A DNA stretch of 64,000 bases from Candidatus Undivivens industriae (GTDB lineage Bacteria > Omnitrophota > Gorgyraeia > Gygaellales > Profunditerraquicolaceae), in contig JAAYZR010000009.1 of NCBI GenBank assembly GCA_012514745.1, forward strand, positions 10,045 to 74,044, in the 5' to 3' direction. A program made the translations under genes and the position numbers. The notes beneath the pieces are model-generated. The model made no database searches. It worked only from the letters and a program-made list of their open reading frames with translations, and had not been told where the DNA came from. Below, one piece after another: positions 19,820 to 27,300 of this stretch (the first letter of the stretch is position 1; each line of letters starts with the position of its first letter).

Positions 19820-20653
19820 ATGAGCGAGGCCGATAGCATCAAAAGAATGAAACTCTATCGTCATCCCGAAAGAATCTATAATGACCTTCGTTCCGCAGGG
19901 CTTAAAGAGAGCGGCCTGTTAAAGGAAAGGGATGTGTCATGTTTTGATCAGTACCATTATTTCGGGACAGATGCGCTTGATGAAGCCATAGATCTGCTTA
20001 AGATAGACTCTAAAAAAAGAATCATAGAGATCGGCTCCGGGATAGGAGGCTGCGCGCGATATCTGGCGGAGAAGACCGGTTGTCATCTAACGGCTGTCGA
20101 GATCCAGCCGGACCTGGACGCAATAGCGTCTTATTTGTCCTCGCGCTGTTCCCTCTCAGGGTTTATCCGCCACGTGTGCGCGGATATCCTGGATTTTCGA
20201 AAGGAAGGAGACGGTTATGATATAGCTGTAAGCTGGCTTTCTTTTTTGCATATCCCGGATCGTCAAGCTCTTCTTAAGAAATGTTATTCGCTCCTGAAAC
20301 CCGGAGGGCAGATCTTTATTGAGGATTATTACAAGCGTAATAAATTTACGAAAGAAGAGGCCGATGTACTGCGCGAAGACGTTTATTGCCCTTACCTGCC
20401 GGCATCCGAAGAATATAAAGAACAGCTTGCCGGGAACGGTTTTACGGATATCGAGATGTCCGATAAAACAGAATGCTGGAAGAATTTTGTGAAAGAGCGT
20501 ATGCGGCAATTCGGTGAGAGCCGTGACCGGCAGGTAAAGGTGCACGGTATCGACACAGTAAATGATCTGGAGGATTTCTATAAAAAAGTATCCCGGCTCT
20601 TCGAAGGTAATAACCTTGGCGGATTAAGAATCTCAGCTAAAAAACAGCCGTAA
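19820..20653 (+). CDS. Class I SAM-dependent methyltransferase.
   Basis: IIEIGSGIGGCARYLA (motif I) and LLKPGGQIFIED (post-I/II). Confidence 0.7.
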   Translation: MSEADSIKRMKLYRHPERIYNDLRSAGLKESGLLKERDVSCFDQYHYFGTDALDEAIDLLKIDSKKRIIEIGSGIGGCARYLAEKTGCHLTAVEIQPDLDAIASYLSSRCSLSGFIRHVCADILDFRKEGDGYDIAVSWLSFLHIPDRQALLKKCYSLLKPGGQIFIEDYYKRNKFTKEEADVLREDVYCPYLPASEEYKEQLAGNGFTDIEMSDKTECWKNFVKERMRQFGESRDRQVKVHGIDTVNDLEDFYKKVSRLFEGNNLGGLRISAKKQP

Positions 20654-20742
20654 TTCCGGGGACACGTACTTATTTCACCTGTAACCTGTTTGTTTATCGC
20701 CCGGAGCCGATCGTCTGTTATGTAAGAAAAGGAGATATACGA

Positions 20743-21588
20743 ATGTTCCTTAAACGCGGTTTTACTCTAGGTTCACTGATTCTCGTTGTTATTCCGTTCT
20801 TCGTTTTCTCTCGTGTGCATGCGGAGAATACGCAAGGCATTGCTCAATCCGCCCTGGGGATAAGAGAACAACCCGAGATGAAAACGATCGGAATGATCGC
20901 AGGAGTAAGCTGGGTGTCGTCTATCGAATACTACCGTTTGATGAACGAAATAGCCGGGGCCAAGCTCGGCGGGCTTCATTCCGCAAAGATACTGATGTAT
21001 TCCGTTGAATTCGGTGATTTCTCAAAGCAGGAAAGGCTTGCAAAAGACGGGGACTGGGTTCCTTTAAGAAAAACGATGATAGACGCCGCGCAAAGACTTG
21101 AACGCGGCGGCGCGGATTTTATCATAATATGCTCCAATACGATGAACTCTACGGCAGATATCATCGAGCAGAACGTCAAAATACCGGTACTTAGTATCGT
21201 AGATGCCACCGGAGAGAAAGTGAAGTCCGCGGGAATAAAGACCGTCGCATTATTGGGCACCAGATACACTATGGAAGAGGATTTCTACGGCGGCCGCCTG
21301 GAAAAGAAATACGGGCTAAAAGTGGTGATTCCCAATAAAAGCGAGAGGGAATATATCAATAACGTTATTTTCGATGAATTATGCGCCGGTAAATTCTATA
21401 GCGAGTCAAAAAAGAGATATCTCAAGATCATTAACCGGCTCATAAAAGAAGAGGGCGTAGAGGGTGTGATATTGGGCTGCACCGAGATACCGTTGCTGAT
21501 TGAGCAGAAAGATGTCCGCGTGCCTGTTTTTGATACTACAGCCATACACTCCGAAGCGGCGGTGAATTTGGCGATAGGGGATAGATAA
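20743..21588 (+). CDS. Aspartate/glutamate racemase family protein. The start may be at 20878 (MKTIGMIAG); the upstream ~45 aa look like a signal/TM segment.
   Basis: Two catalytic Cys regions, CSNTMNS and ILGCTEIPLL, as in Asp/Glu/hydantoin racemases. Confidence 0.7.
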   Translation: MFLKRGFTLGSLILVVIPFFVFSRVHAENTQGIAQSALGIREQPEMKTIGMIAGVSWVSSIEYYRLMNEIAGAKLGGLHSAKILMYSVEFGDFSKQERLAKDGDWVPLRKTMIDAAQRLERGGADFIIICSNTMNSTADIIEQNVKIPVLSIVDATGEKVKSAGIKTVALLGTRYTMEEDFYGGRLEKKYGLKVVIPNKSEREYINNVIFDELCAGKFYSESKKRYLKIINRLIKEEGVEGVILGCTEIPLLIEQKDVRVPVFDTTAIHSEAAVNLAIGDR

Positions 21589-21658
21589 CGAGTGATGGGC
21601 GAGGCGCAGGGAAATCAGCTAAAAGGGCATGGGTTGGAGGCGATAGGGAGAACAGCCC

Positions 21659-22447
21659 GTGTTTCTACTCGATAAGGGGTTTACTATGAAACAATGGTAT
21701 GAAGCATTATTCGAGAACTACGCGCGCAAATACGATAAAGAATGTTTTGTCCAGGGGACTGTGGGTGAGTGCGATTTTATCGAGGCTGAGGCCGGACAAG
21801 ATAAATCCATAAAGATCATTGATATCGGATGTGGTACCGGTCGCCACGCCATTGAGTTGGCGAAAAGAGGATATAAAGTGAGCGGCGTCGACCTTTCCGA
21901 GTCACAGCTTGCAAGGGCGCGGGAGAAAGCCAAAGAAGCAGGGGTGGCGATCGATTTTAAGAAGCATGATGCGCGGGCCCTTCCGTTTGAGGGCGAATTC
22001 GATCTGGCCATTATGCTATGCGAAGGCGGGTTTCCTCTTATGGAAACGGATGAAATGAATTTCGCGATCCTCAAGAGCGCGGCAAGAGCTTTAAACGTCC
22101 AGGGGAAGCTCATTTTTACCACATTGAACGGATTGTTCCCGTTGTTTCATTCGGTCAGTGAATTTTATAAGTCGGCGCAGAAAGAAGGCCAGTCACAGTG
22201 CAAAGAGTGCTCCTTTGACCTGATGACCTTCCGTGATCATAACACCGTTGTTTTTGAGGACGATTCCGGCAATAAAAGGGAGTTTAAGTGCAACGAGCGT
22301 TATTACATACCCAGTGAAATAACGGGGCTTTTAAAAACGCTCGGGTTTAAGAAAATAGACATTTTCGGCGCGAAGCTCGGGGCGTATTCAAGAAACGAAA
22401 AATTGACTACCGATGATTTCGAAATGCTTGTAGTCGCGGAGAAGTAA
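21659..22447 (+). CDS. Class I SAM-dependent methyltransferase.
   Basis: IIDIGCGTGRHAIELAKRGYKVSGVDLS motif I/II. Confidence 0.7.
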   Translation: MFLLDKGFTMKQWYEALFENYARKYDKECFVQGTVGECDFIEAEAGQDKSIKIIDIGCGTGRHAIELAKRGYKVSGVDLSESQLARAREKAKEAGVAIDFKKHDARALPFEGEFDLAIMLCEGGFPLMETDEMNFAILKSAARALNVQGKLIFTTLNGLFPLFHSVSEFYKSAQKEGQSQCKECSFDLMTFRDHNTVVFEDDSGNKREFKCNERYYIPSEITGLLKTLGFKKIDIFGAKLGAYSRNEKLTTDDFEMLVVAEK

Positions 22448-22464
22448 GAATTTGATCTCTTCCC

Positions 22465-22483
22465 CCGGAAATCCCCGGGTTTT
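22465..22483 (+). terminator. Short GC hairpin plus T-run after the methyltransferase gene (weak terminator).
   Basis: CCCGG-aatcc-CCGGG followed by TTTT. Confidence 0.35.
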
Positions 22484-22493
22484 AGGCCGGGTG

Positions 22494-22609
22494 TACCTTA
22501 GCCAATCGGAGTAACACCCTGCCTTTGTGGGATAACACCTTGCCCTTATGGGGAATTGGGCAAGTGTTCCCTTGTGGGAAAGTATACATCGCTGTGTTAT
22601 ACCTTAGCC
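22494..22609. repeat. Cluster of short related repeats, including the right copy of the 33-bp inverted repeat (22564-22596).
   Basis: Three ~20-bp units (AACACCCTGCCTTTGTGGGA, AACACCTTGCCCTTATGGGG, CAAGTGTTCCCTTGTGGGAA) plus two copies of TACCTTAGCCAA at 22494-22507 and 22597-22609. Confidence 0.85.
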
Positions 22610-22627
22610 AAGTTGAATACTCATCAA

Positions 22628-22727
22628 GTTACCATACAATACTTGAAATTCTATCAATCGTATGGTAACTTTTTATTTGACATCAGTTACCATACAAGAT
22701 ATGCTATTTAGTAGTTTGTATGGTAAC
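22628..22727 (+). promoter_or_regulatory. Two palindromic operators (12-bp arms GTTACCATACAA / TTGTATGGTAAC, 18-bp spacers) with a sigma70-like promoter TTGACA-17-TATGCT embedded in the second.
   Basis: Arms at 22628-22639, 22658-22669 (one mismatch), 22686-22697 and 22716-22727. -35 at 22677-22682, -10 at 22700-22705. Confidence 0.6.
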
Positions 22728-22752
22728 TATTTAACCTTACGGAGAGTTTGAC

Positions 22753-23070
22753 ATGGGAGTGATAAAGGGAGTGCTTAAAGAAGAATTCGAGAATTCTCTG
22801 CGCATGAAGGGTGGATACGAGCGCGAATTGGCAAAATTGCCCAAAGGTAGCCTCATTAAAAAAAAGGTTAAAGGCCATGAGTATTATTATCTTCTATTGC
22901 GGCAGAAGGGAAAGGTAAAATTTATCTATAAGGGCAAGGTTTCCGAAGAAGAGATAAAGAAATATCAAGAAGCGAAAGAATACAGGGCTAAGTATCGAAA
23001 GCTATTATCTCAAGTGAAAAAACAAATCAGGTTTTTACGGAGCGCTCTTCGTGGAAAAGAATCAGTATAA
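22753..23070 (+). CDS. Small lysine-rich protein of unknown function; candidate regulator/antitoxin partner of the downstream nucleotidyltransferase.
   Basis: 105 aa, 25% K/R. AT-rich codon usage typical of the island. Its stop overlaps the next start by 20 nt. Confidence 0.5.
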   Translation: MGVIKGVLKEEFENSLRMKGGYERELAKLPKGSLIKKKVKGHEYYYLLLRQKGKVKFIYKGKVSEEEIKKYQEAKEYRAKYRKLLSQVKKQIRFLRSALRGKESV

Positions 23071-23737
23071 ATTGTGTCTTGAAGTATTGAAGAGATTAGA
23101 AGAATCCGGCATTCTCAGGGATGTCGTTCTTATAGGCAGTTGGTGTATTTCTTTTTACAAAGATTATTTTGGAAGCGTGCAGTATCCCACTGCAATCAAG
23201 ACCCGAGACGTCGACTTTTTAGTTCCGATACCATCGAAAGCGAAGAAAAAGGTAGATATTCCTAACCTGTTAAAAGATTTAGGATTTATTGTTAATTTTA
23301 AGGGATCAGAAGGATATATCCAGTTAGAACACTCAGATCTTATTATCGAGTTTTTGGTTCCTGAAAAGGGCCGCAGTTCAGATAAACCATACCAATTGCC
23401 ACAATTCGGCCTTAATGCCCAACCTCTGCGGTTTCTGGATTTGTTAATACTGGATATAATAAAGGTAAAGATAGAGGGTATTGAAATTAATCTTCCTCAT
23501 CCCGCTAATTTCGCCTTACATAAATTAATCATCTTTCAAAGGCGCACTAAAGAGGAGAAAGTAAGCAAGGACAGAAATGCTGCCGTAGAAATTCTTATGG
23601 CTTTGATAGCGAAGGGTGAGGCGGCGACCATCAAGCGTGTTTATAATACTATGATTCCGAGATGGCAGAAGAAAGTTATCAAAGGATTAGAAGAGGTAAA
23701 AGAAAAGGAGATTTTAAAAATTTTCATGGGAATATGA
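23051..23737 (+). CDS. Nucleotidyltransferase-fold protein (AbiEii/GSU2403-like minimal NTase).
   Basis: VLIGSWCISFY ... TRDVDFLV matches the hG[GS]...h[DE]hDh pattern of pol-beta-type NTases and AbiEii toxins. Confidence 0.5.
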   Translation: MEKNQYKLCLEVLKRLEESGILRDVVLIGSWCISFYKDYFGSVQYPTAIKTRDVDFLVPIPSKAKKKVDIPNLLKDLGFIVNFKGSEGYIQLEHSDLIIEFLVPEKGRSSDKPYQLPQFGLNAQPLRFLDLLILDIIKVKIEGIEINLPHPANFALHKLIIFQRRTKEEKVSKDRNAAVEILMALIAKGEAATIKRVYNTMIPRWQKKVIKGLEEVKEKEILKIFMGI

Positions 23738-23904
23738 TATATGTGAGCGGGCCGGAAGATAACGACGCGAATTAATTTTAAAGTAAGGCTGTTCAATACC
23801 GATGACAAATAAGAGCGATACACAAAAAAGAGTATTTTCACGACCTACGGCTGGCCGGTGGCAGAGTTATAGTAATGCCATGAGGAGCTTGGCTGAAGCG
23901 GTGG

Positions 23905-24711
23905 TTGGGGAATAAAAACATGATTATGAAAAGATTCATTCTGATTATTGGGTTTTTGCTTATAAGCGCAGTTTCGTTTGCTCAAGAGATCGACAAGTCT
24001 CTTTTGCAAGGGTATGACGCGGCTCTGGTGATCTATAACCGGGCTAACGGAGAGACAGTCAACATCGATTCCGCGCGTAGTGGCCAGCGCCTTGCGCCAT
24101 GCTCGACATTCAAGATTTACAATACCCTAATCGGGCTTGAGCTGGGGCTCATCAAGGAGGCTGGCGAGCCGTGGTATAAATGGGATGGGGTGAAGCGTGA
24201 TATAGAAGGGTGGAATCAGGATCTAACACTGCGTGAGGCGTTTAAAGTGTCGGCCGTGCCAGCATATCAGATCTTGGCGCGGGAAATTGGCGAAGCCCGG
24301 ATGAAGGAGTATATTGAAAAAATCGCGTATGGTTCACAGGATATCTCGGCCGGGATTGATATCTTCTGGCTTCCGCGTCCGGATACTACATCCATCAAGA
24401 TCAGCGCGTATGAGCAAGTTGTTCTTTTAAACAAGCTTTTGGACGGCCAACTTCCGTTTGCTGAAAAGAATATCGCGATCTTGCGCGATATCATGCAGGC
24501 AGAGAAGACCGACAAAGGCACGCTTTACGGCAAGACCGGCTCCGGAACAGAGCCGGATGGTAAATGGAACTTGGGCTGGTTTGTGGGTTTCTTGGAGCAT
24601 GACGGCATGACCTACGTATTTGCCTGCAATATTACCGGAGGCGAGAATCCATCGGGCAAGACTGCCAGGACGATCATAGAGAACATCTTTAAGTCGCAGA
24701 ACCTGTTGTAA
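23905..24711 (+). CDS. Class D (OXA-type) beta-lactamase with signal peptide.
   Basis: STFK active-site tetrad, SAV, YGS(Q), KTG(SG) and WFVGFLE motifs in canonical order; N-terminal hydrophobic signal sequence. Confidence 0.8.
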   Translation: MGNKNMIMKRFILIIGFLLISAVSFAQEIDKSLLQGYDAALVIYNRANGETVNIDSARSGQRLAPCSTFKIYNTLIGLELGLIKEAGEPWYKWDGVKRDIEGWNQDLTLREAFKVSAVPAYQILAREIGEARMKEYIEKIAYGSQDISAGIDIFWLPRPDTTSIKISAYEQVVLLNKLLDGQLPFAEKNIAILRDIMQAEKTDKGTLYGKTGSGTEPDGKWNLGWFVGFLEHDGMTYVFACNITGGENPSGKTARTIIENIFKSQNLL

Positions 24712-24862
24712 TAATCCGCCATCCCTATGATCGTATTGAGAAGCTCGGTCAGAGGGATTTTTTATGCGGCGATTTTTAGTATTCTGCGGGCACCCGGGAG
24801 GGTCAGAAAAAGGCTGGCCGGAAAGTCCGTGGTTTGGATTCCTTTAGCCAAAGCCACATTTT

Positions 24863-24926
24863 GATGGACATGGATGGACACGTAAATGTCCACTAAATCG
24901 AAATGTCTCATAAATAGTGGACATTT
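24863..24926 (+). promoter_or_regulatory. Operator-like region upstream of DUF6088-fic.
   Basis: Inverted repeat AAATGTCCACTA-N19-TAGTGGACATTT, plus tandem GATGGACA copies. A second inverted repeat TGTCAGAA-N14-TTCTGACA overlaps a TATATTAT -10-like element at 24990-25017. Confidence 0.45.
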
Positions 24927-25034
24927 CCGACCAGTGAACATTTTGGGGGCGAATTATGACACTGGAACTTAGAAATAGCTTTACTTTGTGTCAGAAGTGC
25001 GATATATTATTTCTGACATTAAAAAGAGATATAT

Positions 25035-25634
25035 ATGACTGAATCTATTGAGAGCAAGATTTTTCGTCGGATTATCGGCAAGAAAAAGGGATGGGTGTTT
25101 GCCCCAAGTCATTTTCTTGATCTTGGCAATCGTGCGGCTATTGATCAGGCGTTGAGCCGGTTAGTTCGATCTGGTGACATTCGCCGGTTAGCGCGTGGGC
25201 TTTATGATTATCCACGGAAGCATCCGGATTTTGGAGAAATGCCGCCAAACGTTAATCGTATAACTGCTGCGCTTGCCGAAAAAGATAATCTTAAGATTCA
25301 ACCGTCTGGAGCATATGCGGCTAACTTACTGGGGTTGTCGGATCAAGTCCCGGCAAAGATTGTTTTATTAACAGACGGCTCTACCCGGGTGGTTCAGGTT
25401 GGTAACTGGCACATTATGTTTAGGAAGACATCGCCAAAAAATATGGCGACTGCCGGGCGCGTGAGCGGCTTGGTTATTCAGGCTCTACGGTACATGAAAC
25501 AAAGAAATATCGACGATAAAGTAATTAATTCGCTTAAAAGAAGATTATCGGCCGAAGATAAAAAACAGCTTATCAACGATATCCGTTATGCCCCGGCTTG
25601 GATAGGTGAAATATTTAAACAGATCAATTCGTAG
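25035..25634 (+). CDS. DUF6088 / AbiEi-antitoxin-like N-terminal domain protein, a typical partner of Fic proteins.
   Basis: ESIESKIFRRI...GWVFAPSHFLDLGNRAAIDQALSRLVRSGDIRRLARGLYDYP matches the conserved DUF6088 core. Confidence 0.6.
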   Translation: MTESIESKIFRRIIGKKKGWVFAPSHFLDLGNRAAIDQALSRLVRSGDIRRLARGLYDYPRKHPDFGEMPPNVNRITAALAEKDNLKIQPSGAYAANLLGLSDQVPAKIVLLTDGSTRVVQVGNWHIMFRKTSPKNMATAGRVSGLVIQALRYMKQRNIDDKVINSLKRRLSAEDKKQLINDIRYAPAWIGEIFKQINS

Positions 25635-25673
25635 CAGTTTCTTGGCTTTAAAGCCAGTAAGGATGGAGGCCAT

Positions 25674-26414
25674 ATGAAAGAGATTTCGAGTAAGGTTGAT
25701 GAGGCGCAGGCAAGAATAAACGCATTGCGCCCCTTTAGCAATGAAATGAATCACCAGATAAAGGAATATTTTCGTATTGGGCTTACCTATTCAAGCAACG
25801 CGCTTGAGGGGAACTCTCTGACTATATCGGAAACAAAAGTGGTCATCGAGGATGGGCTTACCATTGCCGGAAAGCCGCTTAGAGATCATTACGAGGCCAC
25901 CGGGCACAGTGACGCGTTCGATTACATGTATGCGCTTGCTACCGGGAAGACAATAACAGAAGAAGACATCAAGAAGTTGCACGCGCTCTTTTATCACCGC
26001 ATCAAGGAAGAAGATGCCGGTGTATATCGGAAGGTGCAGGCTATTATTACGGGTTCCCAATACCCTTTGCCAACACCAGACGCGCTTCCCGGGATGATGC
26101 AGAAACTTATTAAGGATTTGCCCCGTTTGAAGAAAGATACTCATCCTGTTGTCTATGCCGCCAAGCTTCATAAAGAGTTTGTGTTTATTCATCCGTTTGT
26201 TGACGGCAATGGACGAGTCGCCAGACTTTTAATGAACGTGGCTCTTATGCAGGCAGGATATATTATTGCGATCATTCCGCCGCTCAAGCGCTCTGAATAC
26301 ATCAGCGCTCTTGAAAAAGCGCATAAAAATGATACGGATTTTATTAAGCTGATCGCGTCATGCGTCTATGAGACACAGAATGATCTCCTGCGCATGGCTA
26401 ATGGAAAGAGCTAA
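25674..26414 (+). CDS. Fic/DOC-family protein (AMPylase-type).
   Basis: Canonical Fic motif HPFVDGNGRVARLLMN. Confidence 0.85.
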   Translation: MKEISSKVDEAQARINALRPFSNEMNHQIKEYFRIGLTYSSNALEGNSLTISETKVVIEDGLTIAGKPLRDHYEATGHSDAFDYMYALATGKTITEEDIKKLHALFYHRIKEEDAGVYRKVQAIITGSQYPLPTPDALPGMMQKLIKDLPRLKKDTHPVVYAAKLHKEFVFIHPFVDGNGRVARLLMNVALMQAGYIIAIIPPLKRSEYISALEKAHKNDTDFIKLIASCVYETQNDLLRMANGKS

Positions 26415-26416
26415 TA

Positions 26417-26655
26417 TGATTCTTGTTCTCGCAGGGAATAAAGGTGAATTCAACGAATTCTTAAAAAGGCATACGCCTAAAAGCATTTTTCGTTTTGTAA
26501 CCGGTGAGGACGATTATGAAGGACAGAAGAATTGCGATTTGGTTCTTGTTGGTTCCTACGAAGATAATCCCTTGTGGAGAAAAGTTGAACTGAGAGGCAA
26601 GATGCATGACTATTGTCGAGAGCACGCGATAGATATTATTGAGAGACGAAATTAG
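26417..26655 (+). CDS. Small hypothetical protein.
   Basis: ORF directly after the fic stop with upstream GGAAAG; no recognisable domain. Confidence 0.35.
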
Positions 26656-26658
26656 GCT

Positions 26659-26793
26659 ATGACCAAAAAATGCAAGAAATGCAAAGTGCCGCTGGAAGGA
26701 TTTTTGTACCGGCTGATCGCGAAAACGCTGTTCGGCGTGCGTCCGTCGGCCAAGGATCCAGAGCTGTGTAATAAGTGCGAAGACAAGAAATAA
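26659..26793 (+). CDS. Candidate 44-aa zinc-ribbon mini-protein (CxxC...CxxC).
   Basis: MTKKCKKCKVPLEGFLYRLIAKTLFGVRPSAKDPELCNKCEDKK. Not in the ORF track (below length cut-off); GC-rich unlike its surroundings. Confidence 0.3.
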   Translation: MTKKCKKCKVPLEGFLYRLIAKTLFGVRPSAKDPELCNKCEDKK

Positions 26794-27300
26794 AAGGTTT
26801 CAGGCGGTGCCGCCAGCAGGGCATTGTGACCACCAGGAATGACTATGCAATACTTGGAATGGAATGAGTTGATTTCTAAGCAATTATTTAATCAAACCGC
26901 AGAAATCCCCGGCTTTCAAGCCGGGATAAATGCGGAGTAGATTACCCCAGACTTCAAGCCCGGGGAGTTTCATTAACTGATAAGCTAATATGAAAGGGAG
27001 TGTCTATGGACGATTTTAAAAAGGCTTTGATTTATTATAAAATCCCGAGACGTTGAAATTTTTATAACACTATGATTAGTAAAGAGATATCAAAAAAGAA
27101 GATTTTTTTGCGCACCTACGGCTGCAAGATGGACAAGTTGTTACAAACCGATTTTACAATTCTTGGCAGCAGTGCATAATAAGAATTAATCCATTGATTT
27201 GTATAGAGTTACGGAAAGAGTCGTAAGAAAACCGAACGTAAGTGAAAAACGAGGTAGTGTGCAGAGACAGCGATTTGTACATAGTTAAGGAGGTTGAGGT

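Follow-up and report, generated by a model that had tools for sequence, protein, structure and literature searches.

A recurrent DUF6788-like and PF12281 nucleotidyltransferase gene pair behind a doubled palindromic operator: a candidate toxin-antitoxin-like module of uncultivated bacteria

What is the function of two overlapping genes that lie behind a doubled palindrome in the uncultivated bacterium Candidatus Undivivens industriae (Omnitrophota)? The locus was studied in a window of 64,000 nucleotides, the whole stretch of DNA analysed here (contig JAAYZR010000009.1 of assembly GCA_012514745.1, positions 10,045 to 74,044), and all coordinates below are counted from the first letter of this window. 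The first gene (22753..23070, forward strand) encodes a small basic protein of 105 amino acids (aa), which is best regarded as a divergent relative of the DUF6788 family and is the proposed autorepressor and antitoxin. The second gene (23051..23737, forward strand) starts with GTG, overlaps the first by 20 nt and encodes a PF12281 nucleotidyltransferase of 228 aa, the proposed toxin. Considerably more than a hundred uncultivated bacteria carry this gene pair together with its DNA sites. Weighing the comparative data, we lean with some reserve towards reading them as a toxin-antitoxin-like module of the AbiE/MenAT kind that is autonomous and horizontally spread. A function in toxin-antitoxin control or abortive infection is suggested by the architecture of the module, by an asymmetric decay of its two genes and by structural resemblance.

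A first-pass annotation of the window had described four copies of a 12-base site in alternating orientation, forming two 12-N18-12 palindromes 58 bp apart; both the coordinates and sequence shuffling agree with this. Exact copies of GTTACCATACAA occur in the window at 22628-22639 and 22686-22697 on the forward strand and at 22716-22727 on the reverse strand, and the fourth copy, GTTACCATACGA (22658-22669, reverse strand), carries one mismatch. When up to one mismatch was allowed, the site had four matches in the 64-kb window versus 0.19 expected from shuffles, and none of 100 shuffles reached four. The copies pair into a distal palindrome (22628..22669), GTTACCATACAA-N18-TCGTATGGTAAC with the mismatch in its right arm, and a perfect proximal palindrome (22686..22727), GTTACCATACAA-N18-TTGTATGGTAAC, the start-to-start distance being 58 bp. 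The promoter consists of the -35 hexamer TTGACA (22677..22682, forward strand) and, after 17 bp, the -10 hexamer TATGCT (22700..22705, forward strand), which together agree with the consensus at 10 of 12 positions. The -35 hexamer stops 3 bp short of the proximal palindrome, the left arm of which occupies the spacer between -35 and -10, and the -10 hexamer falls within the palindrome spacer. The right arm is located just 3' of the predicted transcription start, at roughly +5 to +16. The earlier description, according to which this palindrome encloses the entire promoter, is thus right for the -10 but not for the -35, which stands 3 bp upstream. A Shine-Dalgarno-like GGAGAG (22741..22746, forward strand), read from the sequence, precedes the ATG of the small gene by 6 nt.

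Is this arrangement a property of the gene pair rather than of one contig? An alignment of the small protein was used to collect 80 loci, one genome per species of the GTDB. At least one 12-N18-12 palindrome was found in 76 of the 80 species genomes, which belong to at least eight phyla. Two palindromes precede the small gene at 61 loci and one at 15; of the four loci with none, two lie on contigs without upstream DNA. The palindrome spacer measures 18 bp in all but two cases, and the proximal left arm begins 49-74 nt before the ATG with the exception of one locus. When the proximal sites were aligned, a common footprint emerged, consisting of TTGAc, 3 nt, GTTACCATACAa, 2 nt, TATaaT, a variable stretch and TTGTATGGTAAC. 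The arms and promoter hexamers are conserved across loci and the spacers vary; across 75 loci TTGAc is kept 3 bp 5' of the proximal left arm, and the family consensus for the -10, 2 bp past that arm, is TATaaT where the window has TATGCT. At the distal palindrome, conservation across related loci is limited to the arms. Judged from these alignments, the palindromes are a real and deeply conserved operator wrapped around the promoter, and the proposal of an operator overlapping the promoter is confirmed well beyond the window. A further promoter-like match that overlaps the distal left arm (TTGAAT-16-TACAAT, 22613-22640, 9/12 positions) probably arose by chance, since its hexamers are not conserved at the distal palindrome of other loci. 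A riboswitch or small RNA in the leader was also considered and was dropped after Rfam, searched at permissive thresholds over 20000-27000, gave no RNA family.

Half-site variants follow the clades of the small protein. The half-site GTTACC[CT]AACAA was found at seven loci, all of which belong to one protein clade and so count as a single event; 6 of the 10 residues that mark this clade fall in the beta-sheet of the small protein. A clade with a small protein of 104 aa uses TTACCAAACAA as its half-site and a spacer that is 2 bp longer. Even a pair whose small protein is 32% identical keeps TTGACA, GTTACCAAACAA, a -10 hexamer and TGTTAGGTAAC, together with a distal copy. From the comparison of half-sites across clades an invariant core, TTACC-NN-ACAA, can therefore be derived.

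What does the second gene encode? The 228-aa protein matches PF12281 (NTP_transf_8) with 88.1 bits (E = 1e-24; cutoff 26.3 bits), its residues 11-200 aligning to positions 5-215 of the 218 in the model, and its homologues are named 'GSU2403 family nucleotidyltransferase fold protein' by NCBI. Apart from this family, a sub-threshold match to NTP_transf_2 was the sole Pfam match. The first-pass annotation had proposed a nucleotidyltransferase fold with a GS...DVD motif and had named structure prediction as the check that could overturn it. Both motifs are present (G29 S30 and D53-D55), and the AlphaFold model (predicted local distance difference test, pLDDT, 89.2) shows a DNA polymerase beta (pol-beta) type fold. 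Among 41 homologues, G29, S30, R52, D53, D55, E100, H157, K158, L159, R165, K173 and D174 are invariant, and T51 is conserved in at least 90%. A Foldseek search with the model returned eleven PDB matches at E <= 1e-3, every one of them a nucleotidyltransferase: a fungal nucleotidyltransferase-like protein (1e-5), MenT1 alone or with MenA1 (2e-5 to 3e-4), ANT(2'')-Ia (3e-5 to 2e-4), LnuA (1e-3), TM1012 and MenT3. No obvious DNA-binding domain was seen in the model. As predicted from model and alignment, the protein is a pol-beta nucleotidyltransferase with intact catalytic residues. Read by eye, its motifs comprise IGS followed after 22 residues by T-R-D-V-D, where the spacing in DUF1814 is 15; K158-L-I-I-F-Q-R-R165, which resembles KLxAaxxR with the Ala replaced by Ile; and K173-D174, corresponding to the '+D' of +DxxD, of which the second Asp is missing. 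The protein had been called AbiEii/GSU2403-like: the second half of this label holds in view of the PF12281 match, but by sequence the protein is not a DUF1814/AbiEii member. To judge by these sequence comparisons, the transferase stands outside the MenT/AbiEii family, though the motifs run parallel.

The two genes nearly always occur side by side. At all 80 species loci the next gene after the small gene is the transferase or its remnant, and the 20-nt overlap is identical in nearly all loci that retain the transferase. Conversely, among 70 metagenome loci that were selected by the transferase and have enough upstream DNA, 67 carry an intact small gene upstream with the same overlap. Distant pairs (32-34% identity) are likewise adjacent. 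Pairing is near-obligate in both directions; the first-pass annotation had counted a lack of co-occurrence in homologous loci as an argument against the pair, and on both of its own checks, fold and co-occurrence, the proposal held up. Its suggestion of translational coupling was substantiated as well. The small gene contains an internal Shine-Dalgarno sequence for the transferase, GGAG (23039..23042, forward strand), which is part of its Arg-Ser codons and stands 8 nt ahead of the GTG. Of the six possible Arg codons, CGT is the one used for Arg100 in 145 of 146 loci, and this codon creates the GTG start of the transferase; a GGAG, GAGG or AGGA motif, usually as AAGGAG, precedes the GTG in 121 of the 146. 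Selection at synonymous sites therefore keeps an independent, coupled initiation of the second gene. Since these sites conserve a start codon and a Shine-Dalgarno sequence, a programmed +1 frameshift that would fuse the two reading frames, an idea taken from fused homologues, was judged unlikely. As far as sequence allows one to say, the generic toxin-antitoxin architecture fits: an adjacent pair that is conserved and coupled and presumably autoregulated.

Is the small protein a plausible DNA-binding partner? It contains 22 Lys and 8 Arg and has an isoelectric point of 10.1. The first-pass annotation had seen no recognisable fold in it. A fold was predicted at high confidence (pLDDT 94.9), in which a helix (residues 2-28) is followed by three strands (33-39, 42-51 and 54-61) and a second helix (65-99); the sheet carries a net charge of +10 and helix 2 one of +7. 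Relatives are numerous, with more than 1,300 at 90% clustering and 500 clusters at 50% identity (E <= 1e-3), and the tyrosines Y44, Y46 and Y59 are invariant. The 105-aa protein itself did not match PF20586 (DUF6788) in a local Pfam copy at E <= 1, and precomputed tables list a 'weak' DUF6788 match for it. Of 45 diverse relatives, eight match DUF6788 weakly (best E 1.5e-4), and the distant relatives P0382 and P0366 match it firmly. On these profile matches the small protein is most aptly treated as a divergent DUF6788 branch. No match to AbiEi-family Pfam models was found for the protein or its 45 relatives, the model contains no helix-turn-helix, and NCBIfam gave no match for either protein of the pair. 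The marks of type VII HepT/MntA (MNT-HEPN) systems were not seen either: neither protein matched the HEPN models of Pfam, and no Rx4-6H motif was read in the C-terminal helices.

A Foldseek search of the small-protein model against the PDB and viral structures yielded nothing at E <= 1e-3, and no sequence relative of either family was found when all PDB chains were searched with both family profiles. The nearest whole-protein shape is prefoldin beta (2zdi_B; template-modelling (TM) score 0.54, probability 0.97), and the three-stranded sheet is weakly like the arm-type DNA-binding domains of integrases (3jtz, 3rmp). One member of the small-protein family matches Pfam Arm-DNA-bind_1 at 1e-4. Neither likeness reaches E 1e-3 or comes with sequence kinship, and we regard both as an analogy of shape seen in a predicted model and not as evidence of membership. 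In two further relatives (P0305, 530 aa; P0356, 372 aa) the small-protein domain forms the N-terminal part of proteins that, on inspection by eye, resemble XylR-type regulators, the remainder appearing to consist of a LacI-like sugar-binding region and an AraC-type helix-turn-helix. If read correctly, these fusions are consistent with a regulatory or DNA-binding role.

Further support for a connection between the two parts is provided by single-chain forms. Distant relatives of the transferase (28-31% identity) occur on 301 plasmids as proteins of 340-365 aa. Their N-terminal ~100 residues are homologous to the small protein over the sheet (hhalign probability 88%, E 3e-6), the helices flanking the sheet are the same, and a full PF12281 domain follows (253 bits). 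Such fused genes were found on 471 plasmid records, and their hosts are alphaproteobacterial. Palindromes stand just upstream of the gene in three of four cases examined: GTTATACTGTTTTT-G-AAAAACAGTATAAC in Rhizobium (L167, 2638-2680), TTATACT-N14-AGTATAA about 45 nt 5' of the gene at 2677 in Sinorhizobium (L168), and TACCCCACAA-N8-TTGTGGGGTA about 80 nt 5' of the gene at 2396 in Paracoccus (L169). The Paracoccus half-site resembles TACCATACAA of the split module. For the fourth, from Phaeobacter (L170), no upstream palindrome was found. In this family the 'partner' domain thus exists in two states, fused or detached, and the earlier suggestion that it might represent an undescribed partner class had to be revised: it is a detached domain of the GSU2403 family, fused in canonical members. 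Fused and split forms have the same two domains in the same order, conserve T-x-D-x-D and have palindromes upstream, whereas the fused proteins are one polypeptide, show a different palindrome spacing and, being likewise uncharacterised, offer no functional anchor. As judged from sequence homology, the fused forms support DNA binding by the small-protein domain and a physical complex of the two parts; they also leave room for a non-toxic regulator-enzyme.

The two genes are not lost equally. Among 77 species loci that could be assessed, at least 18 combine an intact small gene with a transferase gene that is deleted, truncated or interrupted by stop codons. The reverse, a small gene that is not intact, was observed in 3 of the 70 metagenome loci selected by the transferase. 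At six 'orphan' loci (L012, L018, L031, L036, L038 and L070) deletions leave 15-35 N-terminal codons of the transferase and end just beyond the stop codon of the small gene; the other decayed transferases show internal deletions, frameshifts, in-frame stops or a split gene. The operator palindromes are kept in most decayed loci, including the orphan loci other than L031, where none was found. We consider the deletions that stop right after the small gene to be the more telling feature. This pattern is suggestive: it would be expected of a transferase that is harmful or dispensable and of a small protein that must not disappear before it.

How is the module distributed? The 80 species loci come from Omnitrophota, Planctomycetota, Elusimicrobiota, Desulfobacterota, Clostridia, Saganbacteria, Kiritimatiellota, Victivallales and others. 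Within this range the module is scattered unevenly over phyla at 64-94% identity, and different phyla can share near-identical small proteins. The genes that flank it are not related from one locus to the next: 141 neighbours contain 151 Pfam families, the commonest being tyrosine integrases (5), Fic (4), DUF4143 ATPases (3) and AbiEii (2). The combination of unrelated neighbours, near-identical proteins across phyla and absence from the phage and plasmid collections searched (IMG/VR and, for the split form, PLSDB) indicates an autonomous, horizontally transferred unit.

Two characterized systems resemble the pair. AbiE of Streptococcus agalactiae is a type IV toxin-antitoxin and abortive-infection system (Dy et al. 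2014, PMC3985639), and the DUF1814 motifs I-IV described there are hG[GS]-x15-DhD with Arg in motif II, KLxAaxxR and +DxxD (PMC3985639). Both AbiE and the present pair are bicistronic, with the regulator or antitoxin gene first and a pol-beta nucleotidyltransferase second, and the motifs of the present enzyme resemble the hG[GS], R..DxD, KLxAaxxR and +D motifs of AbiEii. The AbiE promoter carries inverted repeats of 11-N27-11 that mediate negative autoregulation; the present pair has 12-N18-12 twice, with autoregulation presumed. The two differ in the enzyme family (PF12281 with a G[GS]-to-DxD spacing of 22, compared with DUF1814/PF08843 and a spacing of 15), in the partner (a 105-aa helix/sheet/helix protein, compared with the winged helix-turn-helix and COG5340 domain of AbiEi) and in the number of palindromes, two versus one. 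The second system, MenAT1 of Mycobacterium tuberculosis (Rv0078B/Rv0078A), also has a short, largely helical protein encoded upstream of a nucleotidyltransferase of ~200 aa. In structural comparison, the transferase model has one of its best matches in MenT1 (8an5_B, E 2e-5, TM 0.42-0.50). T39 of MenT1, in T39-R40-D41, is the auto-phosphorylation site via which MenA1 silences the toxin (PMC11375011, PMC10435456), and T51-R52-D53 of the transferase corresponds to this triplet in a reading of the sequences, as distinct from a structural superposition. MenT1 and the present transferase belong to different Pfam families and share ~11-12% sequence identity, and MenA1 (68 aa) has been reported to lack a DNA-binding domain, whereas the present small protein has a basic sheet and a conserved operator.

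What the data show is the anatomy of the locus and its conservation, the signals of coupling, the predicted fold, the intact active site, the near-obligate pairing and the unequal decay of the genes; DNA binding by the small protein, toxicity of the transferase, the substrate of the enzyme and the mode of its neutralisation we infer. The small protein would bind the four 12-bp half-sites, probably with its C-terminal helix and the positively charged sheet of three strands. It would do so as an oligomer of two-fold symmetry that reaches across half-sites with centres 30 bp apart. Since 30 bp are nearly three helical turns, the arms lie on roughly the same face of the DNA. This geometry suggests an extended symmetric oligomer, and the two long helices could provide the span. 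Occupation of the proximal palindrome would bury the -35/-10 spacer and the transcription start and switch the operon off, the distal palindrome adding cooperative binding. Coupled initiation at the conserved GTG would yield an active pol-beta nucleotidyltransferase. As in MenT and AbiEii, this enzyme may add nucleotides to cellular RNA, most likely to tRNA 3' ends, and it would arrest growth unless neutralised by the small protein, either by direct binding or by induced auto-phosphorylation of the conserved Thr51 in T-R-D-x-D.

Several observations weigh against a toxin-antitoxin-like module. The decay asymmetry (at least 18/77 versus 3/70; Fisher p = 0.0009) compares two samples drawn from different collections and becomes marginal when adjusted for gene length (687 versus 318 nt; binomial p = 0.064). 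The small protein is more conserved than the transferase, opposite to the usual trend in toxin-antitoxin systems, and fusions as common as those found here misfit the classical mechanism of a labile antitoxin. The transferase did not match PF08843 (DUF1814/AbiEii) at E <= 1, and the fold likeness of the aminoglycoside and lincosamide transferases ANT(2'')-Ia and LnuA is as good as that of MenT1. Models of PADLOC-DB 2.0 gave at best E 0.005-0.05 with the two proteins, over short stretches. Neither family was found in IMG/VR, nor was the split form found in PLSDB when searched with the small protein; carriage of the split form by phages or plasmids was dropped as an idea after these empty searches. 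A full-text literature search for DUF6788, PF20586, PF12281 and NTP_transf_8 returned nothing, and GSU2403 was mentioned once, incidentally.

The main rival to the toxin-antitoxin-like module, which we hold to be rather unlikely, is a non-toxic, two-domain regulator-enzyme that has been split. The ancestral or typical single chain of GSU2403 type would have been divided into two coupled genes, the products of which reassemble. The enzyme would have a non-toxic job, for example the modification of its own DNA-binding partner, of nucleic acid at the bound site or of a metabolite, with the palindromes serving autoregulation. The fused plasmid proteins with homology in both domains (471 plasmid records) and the palindromes 5' of three of the four fused genes examined agree with such an origin, and the conserved overlap, GTG and Shine-Dalgarno sequence are as expected of co-produced subunits. 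The stronger constraint on the small protein would fit as well, and one may speculate that Y44, Y46 and Y59 are the modification sites. Yet frequent loss of the transferase with small gene and operator kept is hard to explain if the two form one unit, and selfish or defence modules typically show such a patchy, horizontal spread with changing neighbours. Toxin-antitoxin and defence proteins are also known in fused form, as in CapRel and EzeT, and fusion is therefore compatible with toxicity.

Could the pair act against phages? In an abortive-infection system built from the same parts, the transferase would arrest infected cells, and the small protein or the complex would be the sensor. The structural and motif resemblance to AbiEii and MenT points in this direction, as do the occasional Fic, AbiEii, DUF4143 ATPase and integrase neighbours and a DUF6088-Fic pair that adjoins the module in the window; the single-chain forms moreover resemble fused defence sensors. 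We nevertheless regard this role as improbable: PADLOC gave no match, the neighbours are mostly housekeeping or unrelated genes that form no consistent defence island, and the IMG/VR scans revealed no phage link. It also overlaps with the toxin-antitoxin explanation and would refine the function rather than offer a true alternative. An antibiotic nucleotidyltransferase of the ANT(2'')-Ia/LnuA type under the control of a dedicated repressor is very unlikely. The Foldseek matches to ANT(2'')-Ia and LnuA are comparable to those of MenT1, and the adjoining PF00905 gene with its STFK motif (23905-24711) might hint at resistance, but this beta-lactamase-like neighbour is missing in contig L005 and does not rank among the commonest neighbour families. 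A resistance gene would moreover not usually disappear from a quarter of its carriers with the repressor kept, and the KLxxaxxR and T-R-D-x-D motifs resemble those of DUF1814 toxins. That the small protein is an Hfq/Sm-like RNA-binding protein, with the palindromes bound by something else, can practically be dismissed: JGI labels two homologues 'sRNA-binding regulator protein Hfq' and the 105-aa protein matches Pfam Hfq at E 0.0022, but the score of 18 bits is below the cutoff of 27, the match recurs in 3 of 45 family members, the three predicted strands are not the five-strand Sm barrel, no Hfq/Sm structure was among the top 50 Foldseek matches, and the operator half-sites co-vary with the small protein.

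Returning to the toxin-antitoxin-like module, a wider proposal can be put forward tentatively, as a possibility that falls short of being probable. Together, DUF6788 and NTP_transf_8 would make up a toxin-antitoxin family that is widespread in uncultivated phyla (Omnitrophota, Planctomycetota, Elusimicrobiota, Desulfobacterota and others) and has so far gone unrecognised. The antitoxin would represent a novel type of DNA-binding protein, built as a helical hairpin like that of prefoldin with an arm-type-like three-stranded sheet; as an extended symmetric oligomer it would read 12-bp half-sites with centres 30 bp apart. It would also silence a MenT-like enzyme, possibly by inducing auto-phosphorylation of Thr51. 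On this view, rhizobial and roseobacter plasmids would carry, in their fused GSU2403 proteins, self-inhibited forms of this toxin. Autoregulated nucleotidyltransferase toxin-antitoxin systems are a known kind; undescribed so far are the family of the transferase, the partner's fold, the operator and the relation between split and fused forms. Both families have been catalogued merely as domains of unknown or predicted function, and the comparative data give a testable model with a defined operator (two copies, each with TTACC-NN-ACAA arms and an 18-bp spacer), a candidate repressor whose fold is unsolved and a transferase whose shape and motifs are akin to those of the MenT/AbiEii toxins, which modify tRNA. 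If true, it would add a new toxin family and a new antitoxin or DNA-binding fold to the nucleotidyltransferase toxin-antitoxin systems, explain a gene pair present in hundreds of genomes of poorly studied phyla and show what the fused GSU2403 proteins, which are frequent on symbiosis and roseobacter plasmids, are for. Natural variation in the half-sites and the many orphan loci without transferase offer material for studies of specificity and anti-addiction.

The surroundings of the pair in the window were inspected as well. Between the upstream methyltransferase gene and the operator lies a 106-bp unit (22494-22611) with two 21-bp repeats (TAACACCYTGCCYTTRTGGG at 22512 and 22533). Another assembly of the locus (L002) contains 2.1 tandem copies of this unit, and four Logan contigs all break within it, at 22582. 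On the other side, 1.3 kb downstream, a second toxin-antitoxin-like pair is encoded (25035-26414), consisting of a DUF6088 protein (199 aa, with a faint AbiEi_4 match) followed by a Fic-domain protein of 246 aa with the motif HPFVDGNGR. The PF00905 protein with the STFK motif, encoded at 23905-24711, has a signal-like N-terminus and resembles class D beta-lactamases. Contig L005 carries an identical module and diverges from 23854 on into DsrE/DUF202 genes; the beta-lactamase-like neighbour is therefore polymorphic between strains.

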